Part shown: piece by piece, positions 11,831 through 35,763 of the stretch
Layout: each line of letters opens with the position of its first letter
How positions within the stretch are numbered: the stretch's first letter is position 1
Notes under the pieces: generated by a model
Seen by the model: only the letters and a program-made list of their open reading frames with translations
The model's database searches: none
Told to the model about the DNA's origin: nothing
Source of the DNA: a virus
Lineage: Duplodnaviria; Heunggongvirae; Uroviricota; Caudoviricetes
Length of the DNA stretch: 36,391 nucleotides
Reading direction: 5' to 3' (one strand)
Virus record (IMG/VR): IMGVR_UViG_2778261056_000002
Translations under genes and position numbers: made by a program

Positions 11831-11833
11831 GCA

Positions 11834-14473: not shown

Positions 14474-15025
14474 TCAGTCAATCACACGCGCAAAATAGCG
14501 GTTTGCGGTGTTCTCCAGCTCGTCGATGTCGTCCTGCACAAGCTGAAGGAAGGGGCGCGCGGGCATGTTGACCGTATATGCCCCGACTGTTGCGCTCTGC
14601 ACAAAATTACTGTTGCGCTTTTTCACAAAGCGGGGGCTGACGCTGCCGTTTTTGTACTGTTTAAAATACAGGTTCTGCGTCCGTGCCTGATGGCGGATTT
14701 CGCCGCCTTCGTTGTGGATACGGGCATAACGGACATTTGTCCCGACCGTGGCCTCGTTATTGTTAACCGCAGAGCGGATACTGGCAGCCAGTCGCCCGGA
14801 CTTCTGAAGGATTTGCCCGGGGCCGCGTCGCTTCGCATAAGCCGGACTCCAGCCCATCCATTTCGGGCGACCCTGTTGTTCAAAGTTAGTCTCAACCGCA
14901 TCCAGCATGGAGCCTGCAAGTGCCGTCATCAGGTCGCGCCGGTCCTTCACGGAACGAATCAGTTTCCCCAGCGTGGTGTTATACGCGCTTAAATCAATCT
15001 TAATATCCAGTTTACCGCTGCTCAT
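14474..15025 (-). CDS. Virion morphogenesis protein (Mu G-like)
   Basis: 183 aa ORF downstream of the F-like gene. Confidence 0.7.
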   Translation of the reverse strand: MSSGKLDIKIDLSAYNTTLGKLIRSVKDRRDLMTALAGSMLDAVETNFEQQGRPKWMGWSPAYAKRRGPGQILQKSGRLAASIRSAVNNNEATVGTNVRYARIHNEGGEIRHQARTQNLYFKQYKNGSVSPRFVKKRNSNFVQSATVGAYTVNMPARPFLQLVQDDIDELENTANRYFARVID

Positions 15026-17770: not shown

Positions 17771-17773
17771 TAA

Positions 17774-19414: not shown

Positions 19415-19415
19415 G

Positions 19416-20156: not shown

Positions 20157-20202
20157 TACAAATCCCGAATATCAGACGGCCCGGAAAACCGGGCCGCTGT
20201 GG

Positions 20203-20703
20203 TTAACTGAAATTATCCTCAAGCTCTTTAGCGAAGCCTTCGAGCACCTCAAGAAACGGGGCATACTGTGCCGGGTGACGCTCCTTGATGAACGCGCCGA
20301 GCCGCTGCACCACTTCCAGTGCCGTGGCGAGCCGGTCGGTTTCCGGCAGGATTTTTTTACTGCTGGCCACCGCCTTACTGAGACTGTCAGACAGACTCGC
20401 CAGCAGTTCGACGGACTCCTGCGGCGGGATGTCCGGGTTCTGGTTCAGCCGTTCAAGCGTCGTCTGACACTTCACCACCAGACTGATAAGCACGGTGCGG
20501 GCGACACTTTCCAGCCCGTCACCGGCGAGCGCGTGCGCGGCCCGCAGCTTGTCCCAGTCGTCGCCGTTCTTCATCGCCTGCGTTTTCCAGCGCCGCGCGG
20601 TGTCGTGCGGCACGGCGTACTTCATGGCGACGATATCCAGCGGAAGCTGGTCAAAGATGTACCCGTTACGGACTTTGTCCCTGATATCCTGTGACCACGC
20701 CAT
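20203..20703 (-). CDS. Terminase small subunit-like protein (Mu gp27 position)
   Basis: 166 aa ORF upstream of terminase large subunit. Confidence 0.5.
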   Translation of the reverse strand: MAWSQDIRDKVRNGYIFDQLPLDIVAMKYAVPHDTARRWKTQAMKNGDDWDKLRAAHALAGDGLESVARTVLISLVVKCQTTLERLNQNPDIPPQESVELLASLSDSLSKAVASSKKILPETDRLATALEVVQRLGAFIKERHPAQYAPFLEVLEGFAKELEDNFS

Positions 20704-20909
20704 TAAGTGTCCTTCTGAGCCTGTTCAATCAGGCATTTAACTTCGTCGGGATTTTCAAGAACATACACGTTTTTCCCGGTATCCAGCTCAATGATCGTGC
20801 CACCATATGCACCACACTGACGGTAAAAATGGGTGATGCGTTCAGCGACTACCATGACAGCGCTGGTGCTCCCTGAGCCTGCGCATTCTGTAAATCTGAT
20901 AATGCTCAC
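20703..20909 (-). CDS. Hypothetical protein
   Basis: 68 aa ORF between lysis and packaging genes. Confidence 0.4.
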   Translation of the reverse strand: MSIIRFTECAGSGSTSAVMVVAERITHFYRQCGAYGGTIIELDTGKNVYVLENPDEVKCLIEQAQKDT

Positions 20910-20929
20910 TGTGTCAGACCTTCAAAAAA

Positions 20930-21115
20930 TCAGTTCTGTGATGAACACTGCCGGATGCCGTCAATAATCCGGCAGACCTGCGCCGCCGCGTCAAACAGCT
21001 GGCCCGCCCTGTTAATGTCTGTGCATCCCACCGGAAGCAACATCATCAGAAACAGGGCCAGAACACAGCGCGCGGCTTTACGTGGCGTTCTGTGTGTCCA
21101 GTGCTGACGCGTCAT
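20930..21115 (-). CDS. Small lipoprotein, candidate o-spanin (Rz1-like)
   Basis: 61 aa; basic n-region, hydrophobic core and VGC lipobox-like site (ALFLMMLLPVGCT); start overlaps endolysin stop. Confidence 0.45.
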   Translation of the reverse strand: MTRQHWTHRTPRKAARCVLALFLMMLLPVGCTDINRAGQLFDAAAQVCRIIDGIRQCSSQN

Positions 21116-21657
21116 ACCGCCACGCGCTCCTTCAGCCAGCCATAAACAAACGATTCGTTAGCCTCGCGTTTCTCTGCCAGCTCCAGATAGCGGTCACCCT
21201 GCGTGCAGTTCAGGGCTGTCAGCATTACCCGTTCACCGTCCTGACCGCGATTATTCAGGAATGCGCGCAATGCACTGATGGTACGAGGTCCGATGCGTCC
21301 GTCTGCGTCCATATCCGGGTACAGCCTGCCGCGCAGGTTGAAAACGTTCAGCCAGCGTTGGAGCATTCTGGACGCCACGGATGGCCCCATATTCACACCG
21401 GTATCACACAGTTCTGCGGCAATATCAGGGGATAATGCGGCGACCTGGTCAAATCGCGGGCCATACCAGTAATCGGCTTCAAGGATGTCCAGCGCCTGTT
21501 CGCGGGTTAAATCGCGCATATCGCCACGGTATCCGTGGGCACGGGCGACTTTTTCCGTAATGCCCCATTTGGTCGGACCACCCTTATCATCCGGGTGATT
21601 GACATAACCGCCTTCTTTGCCCAGGACTTCATCAAAAATTTCATCTTTTGATTTCAT
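21112..21657 (-). CDS. Endolysin, GH108-type muramidase with C-terminal peptidoglycan-binding domain
   Basis: 181 aa; N-terminal EGGYVNHPDDKGGPTKWGIT motif characteristic of GH108 lysozymes. Confidence 0.85.
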   Translation of the reverse strand: MKSKDEIFDEVLGKEGGYVNHPDDKGGPTKWGITEKVARAHGYRGDMRDLTREQALDILEADYWYGPRFDQVAALSPDIAAELCDTGVNMGPSVASRMLQRWLNVFNLRGRLYPDMDADGRIGPRTISALRAFLNNRGQDGERVMLTALNCTQGDRYLELAEKREANESFVYGWLKERVAV

Positions 21658-21937
21658 GTGGATGCCTCAGTAACGAAAGGATTTTTGACAAATTCCCGTG
21701 CGCCCACACGATAAGCGCACAGAAAACCAGATTCAGCGCCACAACCAGCCAGCTGGAGTGCGTGTATGTACCGGACAGCCAGCGGAACGGGATGATGATG
21801 TATCCGAGCATCAGCCAGTACGCCAGCCAGGTAATCATCGGCTTATGCGCCGCACCGTGGCGGCGATACACAAACAACCCCAATACAATGGCGAGACACA
21901 GCCAGACGTTCACGATACCGGCAAGGCTACTTTCCAT
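21641..21937 (-). CDS. Holin-like membrane protein (three predicted TM segments)
   Basis: Hydrophobic 98 aa protein immediately upstream of and overlapping the endolysin; start moved to ATG with GGAGG 8 nt upstream. Confidence 0.55.
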   Translation of the reverse strand: MESSLAGIVNVWLCLAIVLGLFVYRRHGAAHKPMITWLAYWLMLGYIIIPFRWLSGTYTHSSWLVVALNLVFCALIVWAHGNLSKILSLLRHPHEIKR

Positions 21938-22319
21938 TTCCACCCCCTCCGCCGCGCAGTCTGGAAAACAGGCCGAACAGCGATGAAATTTCCTGTTGAT
22001 AAAGAAAGGTCAGTATCTTGATGGATAACGCCGAGACACCGACCGCACACAATGCATCGAGCGGCTTGTCGTTGTAGTGGGTCAGCCACTGCATCAGTGA
22101 CGCAGCCACGCCAGCCCCCAGAACGCCAACCACAAACGCGACGAGCAGGTGGATGGCCATTCGCCATACCGGGATTTCTTTCTGTTGCGTGACAACAAAA
22201 AGCGCCCCGGCAAACGCGCCCACCACAACCCCGAAATCGGTATTGGTGAGAAGGCCAAACACACTGGCACCACCGATGGTGACTGCCACAGCTCCGCCGC
22301 CTGATAAGGGTTCAGACAT
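21927..22319 (-). CDS. Membrane protein, putative holin/antiholin
   Basis: About 130 aa with TM segments and Gly-rich tail; start moved to internal ATG preceded by AGGAG (track ORF 21927..22379). Confidence 0.5.
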   Translation of the reverse strand: MSEPLSGGGAVAVTIGGASVFGLLTNTDFGVVVGAFAGALFVVTQQKEIPVWRMAIHLLVAFVVGVLGAGVAASLMQWLTHYNDKPLDALCAVGVSALSIKILTFLYQQEISSLFGLFSRLRGGGGGNGK

Positions 22320-22501
22320 GAGTTTCTCCTGTAAATCTGAGCCACTGACGGCCCGTAAATAACACCCTGTCAAAGGCACATAAGCCTTTTGCAGGGCGCT
22401 ATCCCTTAAGGTGCCTTGTGGTCTGAGTGGACAGGGTAAACGGTCTGGTGTGGTGGGTACTGCTGGGGGAGTTCAGCACCCCGCGGCGGCGGGGTGATAA
22501 A

Positions 22502-22780
22502 TCAGAAGCGGGAAAGAGAATCAGGCGTAATAAGAGGTTTATTACAAAGCGGAGCAGAGGCGTTCGCCTTTTCCATCGCTGCGCGCATCTCGTTTTCGCT
22601 GGCGATGATGTCAGCAATGGCACACTGCAACGCTTCTTCCTGAACAACCATATCCGGTTGTTCAGCCATTCGGTTTAGCTGGCTGGCCAGATTTTTCATA
22701 TAAGCGAAGCGGCGTCCGGCAGCATCCCTGGCCTGCTCTGAGTAGGCTGTATACTCGCCAAGTGCCGTATAGTTGGTCAT
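22502..22780 (-). CDS. Hypothetical protein
   Basis: Track ORF 22502..22813; an internal ATG with AAGGAG 7 nt upstream gives a 92 aa product. Confidence 0.4.
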   Translation of the reverse strand: MTNYTALGEYTAYSEQARDAAGRRFAYMKNLASQLNRMAEQPDMVVQEEALQCAIADIIASENEMRAAMEKANASAPLCNKPLITPDSLSRF

Positions 22781-22805
22781 AAGTGTCTCCTTTTTCTGAG
22801 GCCCA

Positions 22806-23273
22806 TTAATCAAAAAGCCCCACCTGGGTGGGGCTTTTCAGCGAAGTCTGTTTTTGTCGTCGGTGTATCAGCTGCCATGCGTACCGGTCTGAAATGCCGT
22901 AACGGGGACAGAGCAGTGCCAGCGCCTGCCGGTGTGAGCATCCGTCTTTTACATGCTGCTGTAAATCAGCCATAAAACGGGTGTTACGCAGGGCACGTAA
23001 CGCATGATCGCAACGGGGAATGTAAAACGGAGCACCGCCAAGAAAGCGGATCAGTTTGTTGATTTCGTCTTCGGTCAGCACGTCATGTAACAGGGCATGG
23101 ACACCGCCGGTGCGTTCGGCGTGTGCGCCGGTTTTACCGCTTAACGTCACGCCACCAAAAGAACGGATTAACCGGGTCAGGGCGGGGAAGCCAATCACGC
23201 TAATCAGTTGCTGCACGGAATCGGGCAGCAGTGCCTGCGCATCGCGAAGATCTGTTTCACTGAAGGTCTGCAT
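22806..23273 (-). CDS. Mor/C-family transcriptional activator
   Basis: 155 aa; position between early-operon terminator and lysis genes; sequence recognised as Mor/C family. Confidence 0.7.
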   Translation of the reverse strand: MQTFSETDLRDAQALLPDSVQQLISVIGFPALTRLIRSFGGVTLSGKTGAHAERTGGVHALLHDVLTEDEINKLIRFLGGAPFYIPRCDHALRALRNTRFMADLQQHVKDGCSHRQALALLCPRYGISDRYAWQLIHRRQKQTSLKSPTQVGLFD

Positions 23274-23279
23274 GATGGC

Positions 23280-23335
23280 GTCTCCGGTAGTAACTTACTG
23301 TTATTATAGCCATACATGATCGCCTGTACAGACCA
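23280..23335 (-). promoter_or_regulatory. Candidate promoter of the Mor/C-like gene (TATAAT -10 at about 23303..23308)
   Basis: Minus-strand GGCTATAATAACAG about 30 nt upstream of the ATG; no good -35, as expected for an activator-dependent promoter. Confidence 0.3.
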
Positions 23336-23362
23336 TAAAAAACCTCCGCGTTTGCGAAGGTT
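23335..23362 (-). terminator. Rho-independent terminator closing the early operon
   Basis: Minus-strand CCUUCGC-AAAC-GCGGAGG hairpin followed by UUUUUU, directly after the stop of the 23373..23711 gene. Confidence 0.6.
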
Positions 23363-23372
23363 TTTGTTCATA

Positions 23373-23711
23373 TTATTTTTTATTCTCGTTTATCAACACC
23401 AGGTATCCTCTGACATACTCCCATACTTTCTGGTTATCTGTTGGATGCACTTTTCGACAATCTATGGCTTCATTTCCATAATCGCCAATGTCAGCTTGGG
23501 CTTGTGTTAAGAGAATAACCTTCCTGAGAGCGCATCCTCTGATGGTATCCTTTGAAATATCATCCCAGCCATTCATGTATGAATAAGCCAGATTACGTTG
23601 TGCCTGATAATCGCCCTGTAATGTTTTTTTGACCAAATCTTCCTCTGAATCAGAAGCATGGGATATCCCTGTAAAACATAAAGTCAGAATAAGTAATAAC
23701 AGTTTTTTCAT
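23373..23711 (-). CDS. Secreted small protein with Sel1/TPR-like repeat; AT-rich moron
   Basis: 112 aa; signal peptide MKKLLLLILTLCFTGISHA; GDYQAQRNLAYSYMNG resembles a Sel1 repeat core; visibly AT-rich; ATG overlaps the upstream gene stop (ATGA). Confidence 0.6.
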   Translation of the reverse strand: MKKLLLLILTLCFTGISHASDSEEDLVKKTLQGDYQAQRNLAYSYMNGWDDISKDTIRGCALRKVILLTQAQADIGDYGNEAIDCRKVHPTDNQKVWEYVRGYLVLINENKK

Positions 23712-24103
23712 TTACGTCTCCTTGAATCTTTAACCAGCGCCACCATCACTCCAAAAAGCTGTTCATCCGTCAGCCATTCGATCACATGTTGCTTATACAT
23801 GTGAGATGCCAGTCCTTCTGCATACGCCCAGGAACGACCGGCATCAGCCAGCAACGCTTCAATTTTGGATAATACTGATTTTCTGCTCATTGCAACACGA
23901 GGGCGGCGACCTTTACCAGCGGGTGCCTTGCGCGGGAATCCCTGTTCGTGCATGTATTCCCGGATGATGCGCAGTTCATCGAGATTGCAGCGTGTGGTGC
24001 TGGTTTTACCGGTCAGGCGGGCCAGCGTCTGGCGATAAAGGGCATCATCCCACCCCAGATACGCCTGACCAGCTTTAATGGCCCCGATCATCTTTTTCAG
24101 CAT
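23708..24103 (-). CDS. gemA: GemA-like protein (Mu gp16 family)
   Basis: Track ORF 23708..24202; start moved to ATG at 24103 with GAGG upstream (MLKKMIGAIKAGQAYLGWDDALYRQTLARLTGKTS...). Confidence 0.65.
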   Translation of the reverse strand: MLKKMIGAIKAGQAYLGWDDALYRQTLARLTGKTSTTRCNLDELRIIREYMHEQGFPRKAPAGKGRRPRVAMSRKSVLSKIEALLADAGRSWAYAEGLASHMYKQHVIEWLTDEQLFGVMVALVKDSRRRK

Positions 24104-24362
24104 GTTTGTTATCCTCAAAACGCACGGTAAAACGTGAAACGCCAATCCCTGACAAGAACGCAGCGGCACGGTCAAGAGACAACCACGTCTTGTAATCGCC
24201 ACGGCGTTCCTGTAGAAAATAGGACACCCCGGCGCGGCGATTCACAGCGAAGAGATGATACACACCACCGAACCGCTGCACGACGAACTCATCCACGCCA
24301 CCGCTTTCAGCCTGTTGCCGAAAGGCTGCCATTCCGATTTGTTCAATCTTCATAATGACCAA
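24075..24362 (-). CDS. Hypothetical early protein
   Basis: 95 aa ORF overlapping the gemA start by 29 nt; start uncertain (MVIM or MKIEQ). Confidence 0.45.
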   Translation of the reverse strand: MVIMKIEQIGMAAFRQQAESGGVDEFVVQRFGGVYHLFAVNRRAGVSYFLQERRGDYKTWLSLDRAAAFLSGIGVSRFTVRFEDNKHAEKDDRGH

Positions 24363-24507
24363 AACACTACTTTTGGCAGACCAAAAAACATGTTTTGGCC
24401 TGCATTTGATTACTGTTTAAACAACTCGCGAAATCAGGAACGTCGAGTTTCGGTGATGGCTTTCATCGTGTTGTTGCTCCGTGATTCAGAAAATTTCATG
24501 CCGGGCC

Positions 24508-24918
24508 TCAGTATGTGAAATAGACAGTTGCCACGCCGTTATAGTGATCAAACGACACGGCGTTTACCTCATAACTGGCCGGTAGCTTCGAGCCAAGAAC
24601 GTATCCGGGCCACGTTTTCCATGGAATTTCTCTGCTCTCACTGTCGCCATATACCGTACATCCCAGTGAGCCTACAGCTTCATAAGAACGCTTACCGCAC
24701 GTTATGAACCCCAGATGTTGCTTACTGCCCTTAACAGAAATCGGGAGAGCACTGGCTGATGCGTTAGCAGCGTCCCGCTCCTGTTGGCTTGCGATATTCG
24801 CAGAGTTTGCAGCAGCTACAGCAGCCGTGGTCGCAGCGGCAGATGCCACAATAACTGCTGAAGCCTGCGTATGTTGGGTAATGGTTAGCAATGCCGCCAC
24901 AAAAATCATTTTCTTCAC
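24508..24918 (-). CDS. Secreted protein with Ala-rich linker and Cys-containing C-terminal domain
   Basis: 136 aa; signal peptide MKKMIFVAALLTITQHTQA; AGGAGG upstream of the start. Confidence 0.55.
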   Translation of the reverse strand: MKKMIFVAALLTITQHTQASAVIVASAAATTAAVAAANSANIASQQERDAANASASALPISVKGSKQHLGFITCGKRSYEAVGSLGCTVYGDSESREIPWKTWPGYVLGSKLPASYEVNAVSFDHYNGVATVYFTY

Positions 24919-24930
24919 CTGGCACCTCCT

Positions 24931-25113
24931 TTACATACCGTGATTTTTCCAGCGGTTTTGGGCTGCGCTTCTGTTTCGCCAGACACCGTAAAAACGAATA
25001 GAGGACCACTCCCTAAAACCAAGATATCTATAGCGAACAACAAGCCGATTTGAGATACGGATAAGTTGCCCCGGCTTTGCTATCAGCAGTCTTGCCTTAC
25101 GGTTTTTCATCAT
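24931..25113 (-). CDS. Small basic protein (60 aa)
   Basis: AGGAG 6 nt upstream of the ATG; stop lies just before the RBS of the next gene; Arg/Lys-rich. Confidence 0.5.
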   Translation of the reverse strand: MMKNRKARLLIAKPGQLIRISNRLVVRYRYLGFREWSSIRFYGVWRNRSAAQNRWKNHGM

Positions 25114-25283
25114 TTTGCTCTCCTGCGTTTCTTTGCTTCGCGTCGTGCAGCTGCAATACCGGTATGGCGGCGCTTTTGTGCCGGGATGATGTTGTCAGCC
25201 ATCAGGACATGTGGCTTTGCAATTAGCGCAGAAGCCCAAAAACGAGTCGGGTACGGTAACAAGCCGATACATGCCACACGCAT
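25110..25283 (-). CDS. Small basic protein (about 57 aa), absent from the ORF track
   Basis: My translation: ATG overlapping the upstream TAA (TAATG), AGGAGG 7 nt upstream, stop overlapping the next ATG; MRVACIGLLPYPTRFWASALIAKPHVLMADNIIPAQKRRHTGIAAARREAKKRRRAK. Confidence 0.4.
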   Translation of the reverse strand: MRVACIGLLPYPTRFWASALIAKPHVLMADNIIPAQKRRHTGIAAARREAKKRRRAK

Positions 25284-25912
25284 TACTCACCTCCTTTGAT
25301 GCGAATGCCAGCGGCGCGTGGCACATTAACTTCCACGATTCGTACTGTTGGTTTGTACATCTCAATCGCTGTCAGCCAGTCAGCTCCCGTCATGCGCTTT
25401 TCCGCATCGCCATTAGTCCACTGAACTGGTACACCAATAGCCTTCATCGCGATTTCTATTTCCCCGGCAATGGCGCTTTTTCCGCAACCAGTAAAACCAG
25501 AAACAACGACAAGAACTTCGCCTTTGGCTGGTTTTATTTCCCGTGCTTCCAGTTCTGCTATGCGCTTCTCTGCGGCTTCCAGCTTGGCTTCTGCATCTTT
25601 GGCTCGCATCTGCCAGTTGATAGCGATGTCGATAACGCTGTTAGCACAACTGGACTCATTCTCTTCGGCAGCTTTAGCTTCAGAAAGCTCATCAAGCAGT
25701 CCAAGAACAACAGTTGGCGTGGCGAGCGTGATAAAACGCATATTGCTCATATGCTCTTCATCGCTAACATCATCGCCAGCCTCGACCGCTGCCATGTGCT
25801 GAACATAGCCGCTATCACAGGTATTCCAGATTGCCCCTGCCTCGTGCCCCCATTCACCATGTAGCGCTTTTTCTGCCGCCTCACGCAGTGCCTGATAGTT
25901 AATTTTGCTCAC
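25283..25912 (-). CDS. Ead/Ea22-like protein with C-terminal Walker A motif
   Basis: Track ORF 25283..25930; more likely start is GTG 6 nt after AGGAGG; N-terminal ATPTVVLGLLDEL motif and coiled coil; C-terminal GFTGCGKS. Confidence 0.5.
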   Translation of the reverse strand: MSKINYQALREAAEKALHGEWGHEAGAIWNTCDSGYVQHMAAVEAGDDVSDEEHMSNMRFITLATPTVVLGLLDELSEAKAAEENESSCANSVIDIAINWQMRAKDAEAKLEAAEKRIAELEAREIKPAKGEVLVVVSGFTGCGKSAIAGEIEIAMKAIGVPVQWTNGDAEKRMTGADWLTAIEMYKPTVRIVEVNVPRAAGIRIKGGE

Positions 25913-26273
25913 GGGTTGCCTCCTGTTCATTTCCCTTGTTCAGTTTTCGTCTGCATACAGCGCAATCATCGGGGCTTTCGAAGCTGTCTGGTTCGCGTTC
26001 ACCAGAGTACATCCATCTGCAGCAGATACTGGTTACTTCATTCTCGGCAAAATAATGATATTTTTTCGACCTGGCTGGTCTGCCCCATCCAGCTGTTCTC
26101 TCGCTCACATCACGTTTTAATCCCCCCGCGCGGACCTCCTTTAGCTCCAGAAGGGCCAGCCTCAGAAGCGTCCACCACTCACTGTCTGCAACCGGCTCCA
26201 TATCAAGCGCTCTGTCAGCATCAGCAATCAGTCTGGTCAGGCTCTTATCGCTTATTCTGGTTTGCTGGCTCAC
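25899..26273 (-). CDS. Hypothetical protein with CC-x17-C-x2-C cysteine cluster
   Basis: Track ORF 25899..26312; likely start GTG after AGGAGG; CCRWMYSGEREPDSFESPDDCAVC suggests a metal-binding site. Confidence 0.45.
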   Translation of the reverse strand: MSQQTRISDKSLTRLIADADRALDMEPVADSEWWTLLRLALLELKEVRAGGLKRDVSERTAGWGRPARSKKYHYFAENEVTSICCRWMYSGEREPDSFESPDDCAVCRRKLNKGNEQEATREQN

Positions 26274-26559
26274 TGGTTGCCTCCTGTTCATTTTTTTCAT
26301 TCCGGTACACAAGAATTACGACATCTCCCCGGGTAATTACGCGTGCGGGGTCGCCCTGTTGCATATGGTCAATATCAAACGCGTCATTAAACGCATTTAG
26401 CGCCTTCGCGCGCTTGTCTTTACAACGACGTTTTTCACGCTGCTTAAAGAGCGAAGAAATCAACCATCTGAATGACATAAAAGTGATATAGCCATAACCG
26501 ATAAGCGCCAGACCTGTATTCATGGCTACATCTATCGTTATCGTTTTATCAATGACCAT
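26245..26559 (-). CDS. Single-pass membrane protein
   Basis: 104 aa; N-terminal hydrophobic helix followed by a basic stretch (KQREKRRCKDKRAK); AGGAGG 7 nt upstream. Confidence 0.5.
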   Translation of the reverse strand: MVIDKTITIDVAMNTGLALIGYGYITFMSFRWLISSLFKQREKRRCKDKRAKALNAFNDAFDIDHMQQGDPARVITRGDVVILVYRNEKNEQEATSEPANQNKR

Positions 26560-26779
26560 TGCCAGCCTCCTGTTTTGCCACTTTAAACGCCCGTAACATC
26601 GGGACCGTTTTACCGCTGATGACAGTGTTCATAACAATACCGATTCCACTGTGATGTAACGCTCCCGGTGCAACAAACAGCGCAGCATCTACAACTCTGA
26701 AGTAACGGTGGAACTCCCAGAACCAGCAAGAAATAGTGATAGTTGCGGTGACCCCATGGTCATAAAATTCAATTTTCAT
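26549..26779 (-). CDS. Hypothetical protein
   Basis: 76 aa ORF with overlapping start/stop coupling to both neighbours. Confidence 0.4.
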   Translation of the reverse strand: MKIEFYDHGVTATITISCWFWEFHRYFRVVDAALFVAPGALHHSGIGIVMNTVISGKTVPMLRAFKVAKQEAGNGH

Positions 26780-27003
26780 TTGCAGTTAAACCTTCTCTTA
26801 TGACGTTCTACGGCAGCCTTCATATTGTTGTGCACGGTTCTTTTAATAATCCGACGTCCCACACTGTCATAGAACCGCCACCGGGAAGCCCCCGGATATC
26901 CGGGGAACTCAACCACCGCGCTACCGTCATTCATCCTGTATTCGTGGCGTTCTCCGGGCGGCTGGTATATTGCTTCGGTAACACTGAGAAGTTTAAAAGC
27001 CAT
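26776..27003 (-). CDS. Hypothetical protein
   Basis: 75 aa ORF, basic C-terminus, coupled. Confidence 0.4.
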   Translation of the reverse strand: MAFKLLSVTEAIYQPPGERHEYRMNDGSAVVEFPGYPGASRWRFYDSVGRRIIKRTVHNNMKAAVERHKRRFNCK

Positions 27004-27005
27004 CG

Positions 27006-27716
27006 TTACACCCTCCCCAGTGCCAGCGGTCTGTTGCTCTGACCATTAACCCCCTGATGCAGTCTGGCGTTTTTCCCGGCGATAAAACCGGCTGTAGCGG
27101 CAAACTCTGCACCCCGACACGCTTTAGCTGTGCGCATATCCCCGTCGCGTAGCCCCTTAGTGCTGTGCAGGTTCTTTCTGTAAAGCTCAAGGCGGCTTTT
27201 TTCTTCCGGGGAGACGTCATACACCGCAATGACATCACGGGCACCAAAGACCCAGCCTTCGCAGAACTGGTCGCCACGGGCTACCCGCGTGGACGGACCA
27301 CAACGTTTGCAGTGTTTATCCTGATATTTCTTGCGCTCTGCCATCATCTGACGGGAAAGCACATCAAACGCGTAAGCCGCGATTTCCGGGCGGCTGTCAG
27401 AGCCATAAAAACGCACGTGACGTTTGAGTGAACCAGAAGCCCGGTATTCGCCGGATATGTAACACTCGACACCGAAGGCTTTACAGACCAGGTCACACAG
27501 GATGTGCATATAACGCGGCGGTGTACTGGCATCACTCGGCGCACCCGCGCTGGCAGCTTCCTGAATGTCGAACAATTCAGCGTCGTTTTCGCTGATGCCA
27601 TGCTGGCGCATATAAACCTGGGCTTTTGCAATAGCGTTAGCGGCTTCTTCCGGGCTTGATGTCCCTCTGGCAAGGCGTAACAGTTTTTTGATTTTGGCAA
27701 TGTATTTATCTTTCAT
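27006..27716 (-). CDS. Hypothetical protein with DUF2786-like N-terminal helix and Cys-rich C-terminal half
   Basis: 236 aa; N-terminal KIKKLLRLARGTSSPEEAANAIAKAQVYMRQHGI pattern. Confidence 0.5.
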   Translation of the reverse strand: MKDKYIAKIKKLLRLARGTSSPEEAANAIAKAQVYMRQHGISENDAELFDIQEAASAGAPSDASTPPRYMHILCDLVCKAFGVECYISGEYRASGSLKRHVRFYGSDSRPEIAAYAFDVLSRQMMAERKKYQDKHCKRCGPSTRVARGDQFCEGWVFGARDVIAVYDVSPEEKSRLELYRKNLHSTKGLRDGDMRTAKACRGAEFAATAGFIAGKNARLHQGVNGQSNRPLALGRV

Positions 27717-27994
27717 GGTCGTCTGAACCTCAGCATCCTGAATTCTGAATTACGCAACTTCCGGCACGGCCTTCAGGAACGTGGGGAGTTCGTTCTGGCT
27801 GCGGCGCTGGATGAACATCTGCGGTCGATTGAGAACTGGTCGCAAGACGATTAAAACAAACGATTGTCAGATTAATTTCGCGGGCGAATTTTTTTTGCTT
27901 AGCGATATTCATAAATAAACTTCCTCAGATTCAGGCGTAAGCCAGCCCCGGCGGGTTTACGCCTGTTTTAAATAACAATTAAAAACAAATTAAA

Positions 27995-28186
27995 TTAATG
28001 CGGTGCTTTCAGTGTTTCGACTTTTACGAAATAAGGCTCGACATTAATTTCAACCACACAACCACATTTAAAATCTCTGGCAGGTGAAACGGTTTTCACC
28101 ACACGACCACCACGCAACGCCGGATGTGCAGTGTGCATGAAGCGAGTCCCTACCGGATACTGCTTATTAAAGTTCTTCGCATTCAT
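27995..28186 (-). CDS. Hypothetical protein
   Basis: 63 aa ORF. Confidence 0.4.
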   Translation of the reverse strand: MNAKNFNKQYPVGTRFMHTAHPALRGGRVVKTVSPARDFKCGCVVEINVEPYFVKVETLKAPH

Positions 28187-28400
28187 GGCGTGGCTTCCAT
28201 CCTTTCAGGTGAGCATTAGCACAGAACTCGGCCCGGTGTTCCGCCCAGATGCGGCGCAGGGTGCTACACGGGCTTTGTGCTGCCTTACGCCACAGCTTTT
28301 CAGCCTCGGCATAATCGCCGCGTTGTTCTGCTCTGGACGCGCCTAGCGAATACGCCGCGCAACTATTTCCGGCTCTGTACTCTTTGATATCCTGATGCAT
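28167..28400 (-). CDS. Small two-helix protein, ANR-like (candidate anti-activator)
   Basis: Track ORF 28167..28490; internal ATG directly after the upstream stop gives 77 aa with YSLGASRAEQRGDYAEAEKLWRKAAQ and WAEHRAEFC motifs. Confidence 0.45.
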   Translation of the reverse strand: MHQDIKEYRAGNSCAAYSLGASRAEQRGDYAEAEKLWRKAAQSPCSTLRRIWAEHRAEFCANAHLKGWKPRHECEEL

Positions 28401-28401
28401 G

Positions 28402-29046
28402 TTAAACCCCTGCAATATCAAGCGGGATTGCGCGATATTCGTCAGAATCGCCGACGCGCTCATACACACGAATATAGCTCTTGCTGCCAATCACCTGGAC
28501 GGCTTCACCAATCAGCGTCATGGCGTTATTCCAGCGTTCGTCCTCAATCTCGAGGCGACGCAGGGCCAGAACGCGACCGGTGTTGATGTTGCCTTCCTTG
28601 TCCGTGCTGAATGCCTCGCTGATGATGGCTTTGATTTCAGGGCGTGCACCTTCCGTCCAGTCAGCCAGGCAATCATCAATCAGCGACTTCGCGGTCTGAA
28701 TGCGTTCATCAAACGCGATACGGTCCTGCATGGCGCGCTGAATCTTGTAACGCCCGTCAAAGCTGTAAAGCGTGATATTCCCTTTTTTACCGCCTTTCAC
28801 AGCGCCGTATTTCTCCGCCGACAGGTCAATAAATGCCTGGATATCACCAAACGCACGCAGTTTCAGTTCCCGCAGTGAGGCGGAGGCGGCAATCACCATC
28901 TCCACAAGCTCACCGACCAACTGCTCGCGGTCGCGGTCAATATCTTTGATAAGGCTTTCAGGTGTCATTACGCCACGGGCATCCACCCAGTAACCTTCAG
29001 GCGCTTGAGTTTTCGTGTATTGCTTAACTTTATTTTCAGTCGTCAT
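28402..29046 (-). CDS. Conserved Mu-like early protein of unknown function (DUF3164-like)
   Basis: 214 aa ORF; family assignment from recollection only. Confidence 0.45.
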   Translation of the reverse strand: MTTENKVKQYTKTQAPEGYWVDARGVMTPESLIKDIDRDREQLVGELVEMVIAASASLRELKLRAFGDIQAFIDLSAEKYGAVKGGKKGNITLYSFDGRYKIQRAMQDRIAFDERIQTAKSLIDDCLADWTEGARPEIKAIISEAFSTDKEGNINTGRVLALRRLEIEDERWNNAMTLIGEAVQVIGSKSYIRVYERVGDSDEYRAIPLDIAGV

Positions 29047-29075
29047 AATTAAATTACCTCAGTGATATTTACAGA

Positions 29076-29291
29076 TTAATGTGTGTTATGCGCGCAGGGT
29101 TCCACGCCAACAGAAAAAGTATCAATGCCATCAAATTCTTTACTCAGGGTTTGATTTATTACCTCCCATATCCGCTGCCTTACGCCAACCTCTTTATCTG
29201 TAAATCCTCTGTTACTAAGAAATCCCTTATTCCTGACATGAACTCTGCCGTTTTCATCGGTATAGATGAGTACTTCTAACTTAACCGCCAT
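29076..29291 (-). CDS. Hypothetical protein
   Basis: 71 aa ORF. Confidence 0.4.
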   Translation of the reverse strand: MAVKLEVLIYTDENGRVHVRNKGFLSNRGFTDKEVGVRQRIWEVINQTLSKEFDGIDTFSVGVEPCAHNTH

Positions 29292-29303
29292 TCTGATTTC
29301 CTC

Positions 29304-29528
29304 TCATTGCCATACGACGGTGCAGCCGTCGATACAGGACGTTTTCACCACGCGGCGCAGGCCGCTGAATGTCTGGACGATTTCCGTTACCGGCCATACA
29401 GGACCACCCACGGGCGGGCAGGCATAAACCACAGGTAAACGGTGATGCTGTCCCGTTACACGACCGCCGGTGGTGTGAATGGCCACACGGGCACGGGAAC
29501 GGACGGCGTTAATGGTCTGCTTGTCCAT
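29304..29528 (-). CDS. Small protein immediately after B (position of Mu kil)
   Basis: Track ORF 29304..29543; second ATG has GGAG 9 nt upstream and gives 74 aa; no sequence-level identification. Confidence 0.4.
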   Translation of the reverse strand: MDKQTINAVRSRARVAIHTTGGRVTGQHHRLPVVYACPPVGGPVWPVTEIVQTFSGLRRVVKTSCIDGCTVVWQ

Positions 29529-29542
29529 CGCCTTATTCTCCA

Positions 29543-30436
29543 TCAGTGAATTAACATTTCTGCGAATTTATCAATGGCCTGCACACTGACCGGCGCATCG
29601 CTGATATCACAAATCCGGTACACACCACGCGCCAGCTTGAACAGACGGCGGGCATTACCCAGCGAACGTGTATAAAGCGCCTCGCTGATTTCCGGTTCTG
29701 CTGCTTCCGGCATCAGCCCGGTGGCTATCTGGTTAAAATCTTCCTGCGACAGCGTATCGCCCAGGTTAAGCGCCAGCGCTACACGGCTGTATAACTGGGC
29801 GAACTCACCGCGACGTCCCTTGAGGTTAATCAGAAGGCGTGGCATACCCGCCAGGACAATCCCGATACCCGCTTTGTCATGCAGACGGCGCAGAACCTCC
29901 AGTGCGCGATAGGGGAGCAGTTCAGCCTCGTCCACCATCAGCAGGCGACCGGAATCACGCAGTTCTCGCACACATGCATCAATCAGTTCGTGGATATTGC
30001 CGCGAACTTTTACCCCCAGCTGGCGGCACAGCTCCTCAAGCAGTGTTCTGGCTGTATAGCCCGGGTCGGCTTCAATCAGGACCGCATCCCGGTTTCTGGC
30101 GGCGTATTCACGCAGAATCATTGTTTTGCCAAGACCTGCCGCGCCATACAGTACGCAGATTTCACATTCCAGATGAGCATAGGCCAACACCTCCAGTCCT
30201 TTGGCAGCCATACCGGTGGCAACAAATTTCGCTTTAATACGGCGGCTGTTTTCCTTTTCCCGCTCACGGGTCACAAAGGCAGAAATGCGTTCTTCAATAT
30301 CAGCCATATCGCCCTGATATTTACCCTGTAAATACTGGTTGATAACGGCGCTGCTACGACCAATAGCACGGGCGACGTGGGTCTGCGTATAGCCGCGACG
30401 GGCCATTACGTCATTTAATTGCGTAATTAAACTCAT
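29543..30436 (-). CDS. Transposition protein B (AAA+ ATPase with N-terminal HTH)
   Basis: 297 aa; N-terminal HTH (RRGYTQTHVARAIGRSSAVINQY) and Walker A GAAGLGKT; directly downstream of the transposase. Confidence 0.85.
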   Translation of the reverse strand: MSLITQLNDVMARRGYTQTHVARAIGRSSAVINQYLQGKYQGDMADIEERISAFVTREREKENSRRIKAKFVATGMAAKGLEVLAYAHLECEICVLYGAAGLGKTMILREYAARNRDAVLIEADPGYTARTLLEELCRQLGVKVRGNIHELIDACVRELRDSGRLLMVDEAELLPYRALEVLRRLHDKAGIGIVLAGMPRLLINLKGRRGEFAQLYSRVALALNLGDTLSQEDFNQIATGLMPEAAEPEISEALYTRSLGNARRLFKLARGVYRICDISDAPVSVQAIDKFAEMLIH

Positions 30437-30454
30437 AATTAAATACCTTTTAAA

Positions 30455-32497
30455 TTAACGGTTGTTTGTGCCGTTTTTCTTTAAATTGCGTTCGCGTTCA
30501 GATGCGAATAAATAAAGTTCTTCTTTTTCCTTTTTCTCCGGGCGTTCCAGTCCATATCCCAGATTAAAGTCAGGCTTCTGCGTAATAGCCGGGGTAAGCT
30601 CGCGTTTAGCCTCTTCGATTTTCTGCGTGGCCCGTGCAATGCGGCCCCTGACGCGTTTCTCCAGTTTTTGTTCGATAACTGGTTTAGCGAAGGCATCAAC
30701 CTTGTTACCGTTCCAGATGGCATCGCAGATATAAGAGCCATCAGCCCGCCGGACAATGACACTGTTTGCATCATGAATATCGTAACTGACCCTGACTTCA
30801 TTCCCGTGCTCTGCGGCCAGCTCATACGAGTAATAAATATTGTTGAATAACTGAATTTCCCCGCGAAATGTTTTGCGCGTCACTTCCGGCCTGAACATTT
30901 CATGCAGTTCTTCCGGCGACAGGAAATCAATTTCAACATTCTGCTCTTTTATCAGTTTCCGGCGATACGCTGCCGGGCTGTAATGCTCGCCATCCTCTTT
31001 GCGAGGAAGGCTGCTGTGTGGCCGGTTGTTATAGCGTCTGACTTCCAGTTCTATGGCTGCCATCAGTTGCTCAAAGGTGGGGACTTCATCCCTTGCCTTA
31101 ACCTGCCGCTTTGTCAGCTCTTTCCCTTTGTGGGTGGCCTTAATGGCTGACTGCATAATCCGTTGCTGCATCATTACGGTTTCCTTGTCTGCTCCCTTTG
31201 AGCAGTACGTCTGGAAACTCAGGGCCACATCCCGGGGAATTTCCTTGTTAAGCCTTTCAATCACCCCGCGCCCCTGTGGGTTACCTGGTATCCCCGTGTG
31301 ATGCTCCACACCCAGCCGGGGCAAAATCCCGGTAATATCAGCGTCAAGCACCCGGTTTTTTTCGCCGCCCCCGTTATCGGAGTAATAAATCAGCGGTATC
31401 CCGTGCTGTGACATGCCATGACGCAGCGCATCAGCAACGGCTATCACGTTCTCCGACAGGGACAGTGACCAGCCCACAACAAAGCGCTGCCCCGCATCCA
31501 TAACCAGCGTCACCTCTGGCCGGAAAATATTGCCGGTCAGTGGGTTAAACGCGGTCATTTTCATACAGTGACCATCCCCGACCCATACCGCATTAACCGG
31601 TAATGTGCTCCAGTCGCGCCGCACAAAGGGATTGAGCGAACGCCAGGCTGAACCGGTGGAGCGGAAACGCTCTTTAACAATCACCGGGACGCTGCTTAAC
31701 ACCCGTCTGACTGCGTGAACTGAAGGCAGTGCTGCCAGCATTCCCGCATCATTCGCGTGTTTTTCATGCCACCAGGCTGAAAACTCGCGATACGCGTATT
31801 CAACGGTCGGGCGCTTCCATGAGCGATAGAACATAAAGAAATCGCTCAACCACCAGACCTGCTCCCACGGTGTTCCCTTATGATGACCGGGAGCCAGTAA
31901 CGCCAGTAACTGATTGGCATCACCGCGCGCCATCACCCAGCTGGAGTACCAGCTATCCAGGCTGCCGGTGCTGACACCGGTTCGCTTTCCCTGACGTGCA
32001 TTTGCAGTATTAGCTGCTTCGATAATGCGGTCAGGTAACGCCCCCATGCGCACACCATCAACGATGTGCTTTAACGCGGCCTTCCTGGTCATTCCGGCGT
32101 ATTCACGCAGTTTATGCACTTCAGTAGCCAGCAATATCCGCGCATCAGCGATGGCCTTTTGCTTGTCAGTCAGTGCCTGGACTTCGCGTAATGCCAGTTC
32201 CGGGCATTTGACCATCACCTCCAGTTCATCGCGAACGGCGACGTTTTTAACTGCCTTCTGCTCAACCACGGCGGGCAGTTGCGTATCTTCCAGGACCTGA
32301 TGGGTCAGGCGCTTACGTAAAACTTTCTGCGCTTCAGCGGGCAGGCAGTCGATGTGATACTCGAATGCTTTGGTGCCTTCACGCTTGCGCTTCCATTCCG
32401 GGTGCGTCTCTGTGATCCGATTGAGCGTCCAGCGCACCCCCTGAACTGTACCGGGCAAACCAGGAAGACCGGCCAGCTCATTGGCTGAATAAAACAT
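30455..32497 (-). CDS. DDE transposase A (Mu A-like)
   Basis: 680 aa; DDE catalytic core; ATG overlaps the Ner-like stop (TAATG). Confidence 0.9.
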   Translation of the reverse strand: MFYSANELAGLPGLPGTVQGVRWTLNRITETHPEWKRKREGTKAFEYHIDCLPAEAQKVLRKRLTHQVLEDTQLPAVVEQKAVKNVAVRDELEVMVKCPELALREVQALTDKQKAIADARILLATEVHKLREYAGMTRKAALKHIVDGVRMGALPDRIIEAANTANARQGKRTGVSTGSLDSWYSSWVMARGDANQLLALLAPGHHKGTPWEQVWWLSDFFMFYRSWKRPTVEYAYREFSAWWHEKHANDAGMLAALPSVHAVRRVLSSVPVIVKERFRSTGSAWRSLNPFVRRDWSTLPVNAVWVGDGHCMKMTAFNPLTGNIFRPEVTLVMDAGQRFVVGWSLSLSENVIAVADALRHGMSQHGIPLIYYSDNGGGEKNRVLDADITGILPRLGVEHHTGIPGNPQGRGVIERLNKEIPRDVALSFQTYCSKGADKETVMMQQRIMQSAIKATHKGKELTKRQVKARDEVPTFEQLMAAIELEVRRYNNRPHSSLPRKEDGEHYSPAAYRRKLIKEQNVEIDFLSPEELHEMFRPEVTRKTFRGEIQLFNNIYYSYELAAEHGNEVRVSYDIHDANSVIVRRADGSYICDAIWNGNKVDAFAKPVIEQKLEKRVRGRIARATQKIEEAKRELTPAITQKPDFNLGYGLERPEKKEKEELYLFASERERNLKKNGTNNR

Positions 32498-32733
32498 TAC
32501 GCCGCCTTACTGGCATACCGGCTTGGCCAGATCTCCGCAGGTTCCACACCAATAGCATCGGCTATGATGCGTTCATATTTAGGGCATGAGCGATACAGTG
32601 CATTTTTTAAAGAGTCTTTTTTTAGACCAGCGCGTTCAGAAAGTTCACGCAATGTAAAACCTTTGGTGTGCACAGCGGCAACGATGTACTCGCGGTGCCA
32701 GTCTTTGTTCATTACTTCATTTCTAACCATCAT
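32497..32733 (-). CDS. ner: Ner-like DNA-binding regulator
   Basis: Track ORF 32497..32826; the Ner-like part begins at MMVRN/MNKDWH; ...RSCPKYERIIADAIGVEPAEIWPSRY matches the Ner/Nlp family signature. Confidence 0.8.
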   Translation of the reverse strand: MMVRNEVMNKDWHREYIVAAVHTKGFTLRELSERAGLKKDSLKNALYRSCPKYERIIADAIGVEPAEIWPSRYASKAA

Positions 32734-32826
32734 TAGGTTACCCTTAAAAGTTATCCGTGCGGATAACACCGCCGTGTTATCCCTTCGGATACAAGTATTG
32801 ATCCATATGTAGCCCATGTAAAGCAA

Positions 32827-32915
32827 AAATAGCCCTTTCTTTGTATTTTCTTTTTGATTTTGGTCTTTATATGGTTTTTACAATTAAAATCAACTAGTTA
32901 TAGAGGAAAGAAAAA
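32827..32915. promoter_or_regulatory. Divergent early control region (repressor and early-operon promoters with operators)
   Basis: AT-rich 89 bp gap between divergent Ner-like and repressor genes; AGAGGAAAG RBS before the repressor ATG. Confidence 0.5.
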
Positions 32916-33563
32916 ATGACCAGAAATGATGATGCTTTTTCTTTTGTCGACCGGGGAAAAGAAAGTTTCAGAGAGCGTTTAGTAAAGCTGATAGGTAACC
33001 GCAGTGTCAGAACTGCTGCGAGTGATTGGGGAATTCCCCCTTCAACCTTAAACAACTACATTCATAAAGGAACTGAGCCTTCTTTTAAAATAGCTTGCCT
33101 TATCTCAGATAAAGAGCAGGTGAGCTTAAATTGGCTCGCTTACGGTAAGGAACCCAACGCCAAAGAAGGTTCTCTATCAAATCAAACAGCGCAGCCTTCT
33201 CCCGATATTACAAACGAGCTAGTTAACGAGTTATTGAAAAGAGCGTCCACAGAAGTTAAGGAGCAACTGATAAGTGCAATATGCGATATGGGCATTAAAG
33301 GAATCTTGGAACGCCTACAGCAACCCACCAGGCAAGCTACGCAGGCCGACAGCGACCTGGACGAACTGGAGAATGCCATCAGAAGACTAAACATCAGGGA
33401 ATCGCTTAAAGACACTATTTGCATGGCATTGGCTGGTAATGAAGAAATTGACAAAGAGATTTTGCGTCGTATCGAATCTCGTATACGAGCTGGGTCGCCG
33501 AGTGGTCATACCGTTGCCACGCCGGAGCAAGAAACGAAGCCTGTAAGCAAAAAATCAGCATGA
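32916..33563 (+). CDS. Prophage repressor (HTH, Mu c position)
   Basis: 215 aa; N-terminal HTH (VRTAASDWGIPPSTLNNYIHKGTEPSFKIACLISDKEQVSLNWLAYGK); only phage gene on the plus strand, transcribed toward the prophage end. Confidence 0.65.
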   Translation: MTRNDDAFSFVDRGKESFRERLVKLIGNRSVRTAASDWGIPPSTLNNYIHKGTEPSFKIACLISDKEQVSLNWLAYGKEPNAKEGSLSNQTAQPSPDITNELVNELLKRASTEVKEQLISAICDMGIKGILERLQQPTRQATQADSDLDELENAIRRLNIRESLKDTICMALAGNEEIDKEILRRIESRIRAGSPSGHTVATPEQETKPVSKKSA

Positions 33564-33722
33564 GCGCCTACTGCCTGGTGGGCGCATGCTGCCAACTAAT
33601 TAGCGACATCCACAACAAAACCAATACAGAAGACGGATAAGAAAGGGACAAATCAACCAAGGTTAAAACGGGTTTTAAAAGTATTTAAACGCCGTTAAGT
33701 TTGTAGCAGAACCAGATCAAAA

Positions 33723-33866
33723 GCGCCCAGAAAAAAGCGCAAAAAAAAGCGTTTTTGGTCATTTCTCACAAATCCGCCCAGAATCACACTAAATCACCAC
33801 ACCCCGCGCCACACAAGGCTTGCAGGTTCTACCAGGCTGCACGAACTCCGCCCAGAATTGATCACT
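33723..33866. repeat. Three direct repeats of (T/G)CGCCCAGAA within about 150 bp of the prophage terminus; candidate transposase end-binding sites
   Basis: TCCGCCCAGAAT at about 33773 and 33847 (74 bp apart) and GCGCCCAGAA at about 33723; terminus ends ...CCCACA at 33874. Confidence 0.5.
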
Positions 33867-33874
33867 ACCCCACA

Positions 33875-34775
33875 CGTGCGTGAAAACGGCCATGTGGCGA
33901 AGGTCGCGGTACTGGGACTGGCTCAGGCGCGTGACCCGCAGCTGGCGGCATGGATTGAAGAAAACGTCACCTTCCCGTGCACCATGGTTGACCGCATCGT
34001 TCCGGCGGCGACGCCAGAAACCTTGCAGGAAATTGCTGACCAGCTGGGTGTTTACGACCCGTGCGCCATTGCCTGCGAACCGTTCCGTCAGTGGGTGATT
34101 GAAGATAACTTCGTTAACGGTCGCCCGGACTGGGATAAAGTGGGCGCACAGTTCGTTGCAGACGTTGTGCCGTTCGAAATGATGAAGCTGCGTATGCTGA
34201 ACGGCAGCCACTCTTTCCTGGCATACCTCGGTTACCTCGGCGGCTATGAAACCATTGCCGACACCATGACTAACCCGGATTATCGCAAAGCGGCCTTCTC
34301 CTTGATGATGCAGGAACAAGCGCCAACGCTGTCGATGCCGGAAGGTACGGACCTGAACGCCTATGCGACGCTGCTGATCGAGCGTTTCAGCAACCCGTCT
34401 CTGCGTCACCGTACCTGGCAGATTGCGATGGACGGCAGCCAGAAGTTACCGCAGCGTCTGCTGGACCCGGTGCGTCTGCACCTGCAAAACGGCGGCAGCT
34501 GGCGTCACCTGGCGCTGGGCGTGGCTGGCTGGATGCGTTACACCCAGGGCGTGGATGAGCAGGGTAATGCCATTGACGTGGTCGACCCGATGCTGGCGGA
34601 GTTCCAGAAGGTCAACGCGCAGTATCAGGGCGCAGACCGCGTGAAAGCGCTGCTGGGCCTGAGCGGTATTTTTGCCGATGATCTGCCGCAGAATGCCGAC
34701 TTTGTTGGCGCAGTGACGGCGGCATATCAGCAGCTGTGCGAACGCGGTGCGCGCGAGTGTGTGGCTGCGCTGTAA
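33875..34775 (+). pseudogene. uxuB: uxuB (D-mannonate oxidoreductase) 3' fragment, truncated by the prophage insertion
   Basis: Translation from 33876 (VRENGHVAKVAVLGLAQARDPQLAAWIEEN...LCERGARECVAAL) recognised as the C-terminal part of UxuB; upstream residues in the track ORF are phage-end DNA. Confidence 0.85.
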
Positions 34776-34989: not shown

Positions 34990-35763
34990 ATGAAATCTGC
35001 CACCTCTGCGCAAAGACCTTACCAGGAAGTCGGGGCGATGATCCGCGATCTGATCATAAAGACGCCGTACAATCCTGGCGAACGGCTGCCGCCGGAGCGT
35101 GAAATTGCAGAAATGCTTGATGTCACGCGGACGGTGGTACGTGAAGCGCTGATCATGCTGGAGATCAAAGGGCTGGTGGAAGTACGCCGGGGTGCCGGTA
35201 TCTATGTTCTTGATAACTCAGGCAGCCAGAACACAGACAGTCCGGATGCCAACGTCTGCAACGATGCCGGTCCTTTTGAGCTGTTACAGGCGCGGCAGTT
35301 ATTGGAGAGCAACATCGCCGAGTTTGCCGCTTTGCAGGCTACCCGCGAAGATATCGTCAAAATGCGTCAGGCATTGCAACTGGAAGAGCGTGAACTGGCT
35401 TCCAGTGCGCCGGGCAGCAGCGAAAGCGGTGACATGCAGTTCCATCTCGCTATTGCCGAAGCAACGCATAACAGCATGCTGGTGGAGCTGTTCCGTCAGT
35501 CCTGGCAGTGGCGGGAAAACAATCCAATGTGGATCCAGTTGCACAGCCATCTGGATGACAGCCTGTATCGCAAAGAGTGGTTGGGCGATCACAAACAGAT
35601 CCTCGCCGCGTTAATCAAAAAAGATGCCCGAGCGGCGAAGCTGGCAATGTGGCAGCATCTGGAAAACGTTAAGCAACGTCTGCTGGAATTCTCGAACGTT
35701 GACGATATTTATTTTGATGGCTATCTGTTTGATTCATGGCCGCTGGATAAAGTCGACGCCTGA
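34990..35763 (+). CDS. uxuR: UxuR, GntR-family repressor of hexuronate utilisation
   Basis: 257 aa; N-terminal GntR-type HTH; sequence recognised as UxuR; follows uxuB as in the uxuAB-uxuR locus. Confidence 0.9.
   Translation: MKSATSAQRPYQEVGAMIRDLIIKTPYNPGERLPPEREIAEMLDVTRTVVREALIMLEIKGLVEVRRGAGIYVLDNSGSQNTDSPDANVCNDAGPFELLQARQLLESNIAEFAALQATREDIVKMRQALQLEERELASSAPGSSESGDMQFHLAIAEATHNSMLVELFRQSWQWRENNPMWIQLHSHLDDSLYRKEWLGDHKQILAALIKKDARAAKLAMWQHLENVKQRLLEFSNVDDIYFDGYLFDSWPLDKVDA

Follow-up and report, generated by a model that had tools for sequence, protein, structure and literature searches.

A Mu-like transposable phage has inserted into uxuB of an E. coli genome, splitting the gene and leaving a target duplication of 4 bp, the length found at every simple insertion of the same prophage family that we analyzed. 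We hold it very probable that this element of ~36 kb was integrated by DDE transposition at uxuB codon 187/188. The DNA analyzed here (the window; 36391 bp) is the whole of contig NLNX01000048.1 of the draft E. coli assembly GCA_002229935.1, and a contig identical to NLNX01000048.1 exists in the Logan assembly of SRR3989739. The open reading frame (ORF) map and the composition of the window give minus-strand phage genes to 33.9 kb and host genes thereafter. An earlier note, made from the sequence of the window, had proposed a Mu-type prophage insertion in uxuB, and this is confirmed by the data below. The features at the junction are as follows.

1..33874, genes on the minus strand: Mu-like prophage body, with the left end of the phage at the high coordinate
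33873..33874, minus strand: left terminus of the phage, dinucleotide CA (5'-TG on the phage strand), where the shared sequence stops in nine insertions with different flanks
33875..34775, plus strand: uxuB 3' fragment (nt 561-1461 including the stop codon), 100% identical to many E. coli uxuB genes
34990..35763, plus strand: uxuR, intact, in the host flank outside the element, identified by megablast match and annotation

Using megablast of window positions 33000-35000 against 5426 complete E. coli genomes, we obtained a 100% match to uxuB-uxuR from position 33874 on and nothing upstream, and the phage side and the uxuB host side were found together in none of the 5426 genomes. The last 1075 phage bases are 100% identical in two chicken isolates, GPEC349-628 and GPEC1176, in which the phage end ...CCCCACA is followed by CAAAG upstream of trg, versus CGTGC in the window. 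Because the shared sequence gives way to different host DNA in these isolates, the phage ends at 33874; the A at this position also equals uxuB nt 560, by coincidence. Host sequence begins at uxuB nt 561, placing the break at nt 560/561 of 1461. The coordinates (33874/33875) and sequence that the earlier note gave for the junction are exact, and its statement that the reading continues in frame as UxuB holds, as the ORF at 33858-34775 is in the uxuB frame with Val188 as the first whole host codon. Eight more insertions of the family, each at a chromosomal site of its own, establish the position of the Mu-type terminus (5'-TG on the phage strand). The uxuB 3' fragment lacks its native start and promoter. 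In exact-sequence look-ups, a truncated UxuB product of 299 aa (GTG start) was encoded on NLNX01000048.1, and the 305-aa TTG-start ORF across the junction had no match; an exact-pattern scan of the IMG/VR viral contigs gave no match to the phage/host junction of the window.

Two side observations concern the uxuB region. Per E. coli genome, the median number of places matched by some short stretch within 33000-35000 is 36, and we suspect this stretch to be a REP-type repeat in the uxuB-uxuR spacer. The 263-aa ATG-start version of the window ORF led to an unrelated ENA metagenome scaffold (ZHAN20-1 scaffold_4181) that carries uxuA, a 79-aa minus-strand ORF, and then a uxuB call starting at Met224, which suggests a different uxuB disruption in another E. 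coli population.

The other end of the prophage lies on NLNX01000034.1 of the same assembly, which has the order fim-gntP-uxuA-uxuB(nt 1-564)|TGTAACTTCGCG..., with the phage sequence after uxuB nt 564 reading TGTAACTTCGCGTTTTTTTCTGGGC...; the junction letters are ...GCGATAACGTG|TGTAACTTCGCG, and the same second junction is present in Logan contig SRR3989739_386. The reading of the earlier note depends on this end adjoining the 5' part of uxuB, and it does abut it; both fragments of the split gene are thus found in one assembly, GCA_002229935.1. Intact uxuB reads GATAA CGTG CGTGAAAAC, and undisrupted uxuB across the insertion point would read GATAACGTGCGTGAAAAC. The NLNX01000034.1 junction reads ...GATAACGTG|TGTAAC..., and the window junction reads CCCCACA|CGTGCGTGAAAAC. 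Because intact uxuB and the two junctions align in this way, uxuB is cleanly split, with CGTG (nt 561-564) at both junctions. In two assemblies, both junction contigs cross 560-900 bp of uxuB with no branching, which argues against a second, intact uxuB copy in the genome.

The second junction also encodes a protein. We predicted the UxuB-phage fusion with right-end sequence from sister prophages, for a 4-bp and for a 5-bp duplication. The fusion expected from a 4-bp duplication, UxuB 1-188 followed by CNFAFFSGLIGAQFWAERAQPKSPELDAKLLVSC (222 aa), has an exact match in the protein collection and is encoded at the end of NLNX01000034.1 and in SRR3989739_386, whereas exact-sequence look-up found the 189-aa fusion expected from a 5-bp duplication to be absent from that collection. 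The only matching variant is the one with E17 and the E2348/69-type right end; fusion variants with D17, or with the GPEC-type right end, were absent in the same look-up. A homologous-protein search with the predicted fusion returned only ordinary UxuB fragments among cluster representatives.

The window comes from a draft assembly in which the contig stops within the prophage, and its junction could in principle be an assembly chimera or mark a site-specific integrase/att element that targets uxuB. We regard either as extremely unlikely, since both junctions are present in two assemblies (NCBI and Logan) and are reciprocal, sharing the 4-bp duplication, while no integrase adjoins either prophage end and the family occupies at least nine unrelated sites, with the uxuB copy in no other complete E. 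coli genome. The lack of an integrase at the ends and the many insertion sites place the element outside the class of site-specific integrase-type prophages. Transposition into uxuB remains our reading of the two junctions.

Prophages of this family occur in 55 of 5426 complete E. coli genomes (~1%), where they are routinely annotated. Besides uxuB, we took both ends from eight further family prophages in complete genomes. All nine simple insertions (9/9) have TG...CA ends and identical flanking 4-mers, and the insertion sites, to which phnJ is to be added (see below), and duplications, in phage orientation, are as follows.

33875..33878, plus strand: target duplication copy CGTG (uxuB nt 561-564), with the second copy at the NLNX01000034.1 junction
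uxuB: CACG
trg-hokB: TTTG
PAAR gene: AGTA
eutC (E2348/69): CACT
dtpB-uspA: CGGT
yfcC-pta: GACA
P2-like prophage, tail gene (UMNF18): GATG
agaF-agaE: CCCT
yigF-rarD: AATC

The earlier note had predicted a 5-bp duplication, CGTGC; only CGTG is duplicated, and the length is 4 bp in 9/9 insertions with both ends intact. A duplication of 5 bp is that of Mu itself (PMC8705779), and the uxuB lysogen taken alone invites the idea that the canonical length applies and that the terminus has been misplaced by one base, as the A at 33874 equals uxuB nt 560 and ACGTG is readable as a 5-bp repeat. The following results make this very unlikely: extending the repeat by one base fails on the right-end side in 5/9 and on the left-end side in 6/9 insertions and would destroy the TG...CA termini, the empty trg-hokB site shows exactly four duplicated bases (TTTG), and the protein collection holds the fusion of the 4-bp type and lacks that of the 5-bp type. 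Based on the nine insertions, the empty site, and the failed one-base extensions, we conclude that the scar of this prophage family is 4 bp.

In F163 (NZ_OY754349.1, 2001-36567), a tenth copy lies between phnJ' and a phnL gene that lacks its 5' end. This copy is not flanked by a target duplication, ends at the right in ...GTTACT rather than ...GTTACA, and is accompanied by the loss of ~2 kb of host phn DNA; it looks like a transposition-associated adjacent deletion rather than a simple insertion. Thus, with its deletion, its terminal T, and no duplication, F163 indicates that not every family copy is a simple insertion.

Transposable phages have been described with duplications of 5 bp (Mu) and 6 bp (B3), and a "5/6 bp" scar has been used to delimit prophages (PMC8705779). 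In the literature on Mu-like phages, the E2348/69 prophage, and JNE082796, we found no paper describing a 4-bp duplication for transposable phages, and duplications are not reported in the SfMu and PluMu papers. A 4-bp scar has been noticed before, as a feature of GenBank record LC727881.

The left end of the phage carries three direct repeats, found by repeat search as 15-mers with spacings of 51 and 74 bp.

33844..33858, minus strand: L1-like putative transposase site, core TTCTGGGC, with TCTGGGC starting 19 nt from the terminus
33770..33784, minus strand: L2-like putative transposase site, core 93 nt from the terminus
33719..33733, minus strand: L3-like putative transposase site, core 144 nt from the terminus

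Exactly three copies of CGCCCAGAA are present among the 36391 bases of the window, against 0.40 expected; they are located at 33724, 33775, and 33849, all inside the last 151 bp of the phage. The earlier note had described these repeats, and its count and placement near the terminus are borne out, as are its two identical 12-mers 74 bp apart (TCCGCCCAGAAT at 33773-33784 and 33847-33858). The motif it gave, (T/G)CGCCCAGAA, needs correction; the preceding bases are G, C, and C, giving (G/C)CGCCCAGAA. Its comparison with the L1/L2/L3 arrangement of Mu, in a non-Mu sequence, fits in position, number, and orientation, and further copies of the core form an R1/R2/inverted-R3 arrangement at the right end. 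Across nine prophages, the family core TTCTGG(G/A)C lies 19, 93, and 144 nt from the left terminus and 19, 41, and, inverted, 68 nt from the right terminus. R1 is therefore as far from the right terminus as L1 is from the left (19 nt), and R2 lies 22 bp inward of R1. MuA has been described as having three sites per end "with different spacings" and HU as binding between L1 and L2 (PMC3145075), and the layout of the family sites fits this three-site description.

Because L1 and R1 are equidistant from the termini and the core is absent elsewhere in the phage, binding by the transposase is the best reading of the repeats, as judged from their pattern. The repeats lie downstream of the repressor gene, and the innermost, L3-like one overlaps one or more weak terminator-like hairpins (33723-33756), as might be expected of repressor operators or of parts of the repressor-gene terminator. 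We consider such a role very unlikely to account for the repeats: the right end, which is 36 kb away from any repressor gene, has three copies of the core, with R1 at 19 nt like L1, R2 22 bp further in, and R3 inverted as in Mu; it is found nowhere else in the 36-kb window; and the sites are kept in F163 and Z1323CEC0011, in which the repressor module differs. We therefore refer to the repeats as putative transposase sites.

Some members of the family have variant sites. In UMNF18, all six cores are of the GGAC or GGAT type (variant TTCTGGAC/T replacing TTCTGGGC), and 14 residues of the transposase are substituted in the segment 137-188. Z1323CEC0011 has the variant 137-188 segment of the transposase, GGAC/GGAT at its three left sites, GGGC at its right sites, and a clean 4-bp duplication; ends of hybrid type are thus compatible with a clean scar of 4 bp. 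As Z1323CEC0011 mixes the variant transposase with GGGC right sites, we do not claim transposase-site co-evolution or a specificity switch; the G/A difference in the core may be tolerated variation or may reflect linkage to the nearby left end.

Inward of the repeats lie four genes whose predicted products and order resemble those at the left end of Mu.

32916..33563, plus strand: repressor (analogue of Mu c), Pfam Phage_CI_repr (E 2.6e-6), reading toward the phage end
32497..32733, minus strand: Ner-like early regulator, 78 aa, Pfam HTH_35 (E 9e-26)
30455..32497, minus strand: MuA-family DDE transposase, 680 aa, Pfam HTH_Tnp_Mu_1 and Mu-transpos_C
29543..30436, minus strand: MuB-like AAA+ transposition ATPase, 297 aa, Pfam AAA_22 (E 9e-23)

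The repressor gene is in the position of Mu c, and the order c / ner / A / B is, by these assignments, that of a Mu-like left end read on the complementary strand. The transposase scored 41.8 bits for PF02316 (cut-off 23.3) and 61.8 bits for PF09299 (cut-off 21.7), with rve below its cut-off. It is 21% identical to MuA across the catalytic core, where the predicted catalytic residues D308, D374, and E414 align opposite MuA D269, D336, and E392, and its N-terminal 60 residues have 34% identity to MuA domain I-alpha; the chains of MuA in the PDB match it only at E of about 1e-4. The gene for the ATPase, which is 32% identical to MuB over 214 aa, directly follows the transposase gene. In Mu, the I-alpha domain of MuA and the repressor share an operator/enhancer region. 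The first ~60 residues of the transposase, the I-alpha-like part, have been swapped as a module in F163 and Z1323CEC0011 together with a different adjacent repressor gene, as is expected if, as in Mu, this domain and the repressor share an operator/enhancer region.

Based on these predicted functions, the insertion may be explained as follows. The 680-aa transposase would bind the three TTCTGG(G/A)C core sites at each phage end, pair the ends, and expose the terminal CA-3' hydroxyls. It would then join these to target phosphates staggered by 4 bp, in a target supplied by the MuB-like ATPase encoded adjacent to it, and gap repair would leave the 4-bp duplication CGTG. The uxuB gene is thereby left as 188 codons of its 5' part, running on into 34 phage-encoded codons, and a 3' piece that lacks a promoter.

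The remainder of the prophage is also of the Mu type. Window positions 997-33875 are 99.8% identical to a prophage of 35.7 kb that GPEC349-628 carries between trg and hokB, for which the RefSeq annotation lists Mor, GemA-like, terminase, Mu gpT head, sheath, tape measure, and baseplate proteins. Through the annotation of this relative, Mu-type late genes (Mor, GemA, DUF935 portal, gpT head, and contractile tail) are assigned to the present element, and a GemA Pfam match was obtained on NLNX01000048.1 itself. The presence of a 99.8%-identical prophage at another locus in other strains supports recent mobility of the element, and the prophage may still be active. The window opens inside the tail-fibre region, with ~2 kb and the phage right end missing. 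By comparison with relatives, from which the gap was sized, NLNX01000034.1 and NLNX01000048.1 would be joined through ~2 kb of tail-fibre DNA.

Several observations concern this part of the element. NLNX01000048.1 and NLNX01000034.1 both break in the tail-fibre/tail-fibre-assembly region, presumably owing to tail-fibre modules that are repeated in other prophages. Window positions 747-996 are absent from the GPEC349-628 prophage, in which the baseplate-J and YmfQ genes are shortened. In all family members checked, only ~30 codons of a Gin/Hin-type invertase gene (MFIGYVRASTNDQDTDLQRNALNCAGYELIF) are left, immediately inward of the right end; they lie at 10790-10895 of the extracted NLNX01000034.1 locus and form 93-bp pseudogenes in four other members, including F163. 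With so little of the gene left, the phage probably encodes no enzyme that could still invert the opposed tail-fibre modules.

For the host, the earlier note had predicted that uxuB is inactivated and that glucuronate catabolism is blocked at the mannonate step. The first part agrees with the physical split of uxuB, and the 5' fragment retains only the N-terminal domain of Mannitol_dh. The position of the block has to be revised: UxuB is fructuronate reductase (RefSeq annotation), and the step that would be lost is fructuronate to mannonate, mannonate being consumed by UxuA. From established knowledge of the pathway, we infer that the lysogen lacks fructuronate reductase and has a growth defect on glucuronate. 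The insertion explains the broken uxuB in this genome, and glucuronate is predicted not to support growth of the strain.

The insertion is ordinary in kind for Mu-type phages and introduces no new principle. For a Mu-like prophage family, the analysis defines the exact ends, the scar of 4 bp, and six putative sites for the transposase. Prophage finders or annotators that use a "5/6-bp scar" would place the ends of this family one base off. We think it somewhat probable that this clade, together with one or more sister clades (one of them with a transposase of 45% identity), represents a natural Mu-type system with a 4-nt stagger, the six-site topology of Mu, and a wholly different site sequence. 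If true, a transposase of Mu architecture with a 4-bp stagger would offer a comparison for how DDE transpososomes set target spacing, and the family ends could serve as an orthogonal mini-Mu-type tool.

Apart from the 5-bp scar, and with binding of the sites by the transposase predicted from their sequence pattern, the element has the defining features of Mu-like transposable phages. It shares with Mu (NC_000929) the gene order c / ner / A / B at the left end, the TG...CA termini, near-random insertion, the domain architecture of MuA along with a MuB-like ATPase, and, by a scan of the Mu ends, the sequence pattern of three sites per end with L1 apart from L2-L3, R1 and R2 22 bp apart, and R3 inverted. 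It differs from Mu in that the transposase is only 21% identical to MuA and the B protein 32% identical to MuB, the site is TTCTGGGC rather than of the ...CGAAA type, the like positions L1-L2 and L2-L3 are 74 and 51 bp apart rather than about 105 and 40 bp, the target duplication is 4 bp rather than 5 bp (PMC8705779), and the invertase gene is only a 30-codon remnant at the right end. Megablast of the early region against 50,697 phage records gave no match. By its 4-bp duplication and distant sequence, the element appears to lie outside Mu sensu stricto (genus Muvirus). With B3 and other Tn552-type phages, it has in common that it is transposable and temperate and makes short target duplications; B3 has a 6-bp duplication and a Tn552-family transposase (PMC8705779), whereas the Mu-type Pfam domains and the 4-bp duplication found here differ from those that define that class.

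The closest transposases of isolated phages are 41-49% identical (Pseudomonas VW-6B, Klebsiella, Yersinia, Mannheimia, and SuMu phages). The transposase of Mu_JNE082796 (GenBank LC727881, 35673-75648), a Mu-like phage of E. coli that resides within an Stx2c phage, is 45% identical. As in the present family, this phage has a duplication of 4 bp (GATG), which the depositors annotated as "duplication due to insertion", and repeated sites lie about 17-19 nt from each end and further in; it belongs to another phage lineage, with the site motif TTTGATAC and ends annotated as TG...TA. Far closer is the eutC prophage of enteropathogenic E. coli E2348/69 (NC_011601, about 2715935-2751670), a member of the same family, whose left end is 89% identical and whose transposase differs at 16/680 residues. 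Its insertion site and its accessory and tail-fibre genes are different, but it has the same site layout, the same TG...CA ends, and a 4-bp duplication (CACT), and it likewise splits a catabolic gene.
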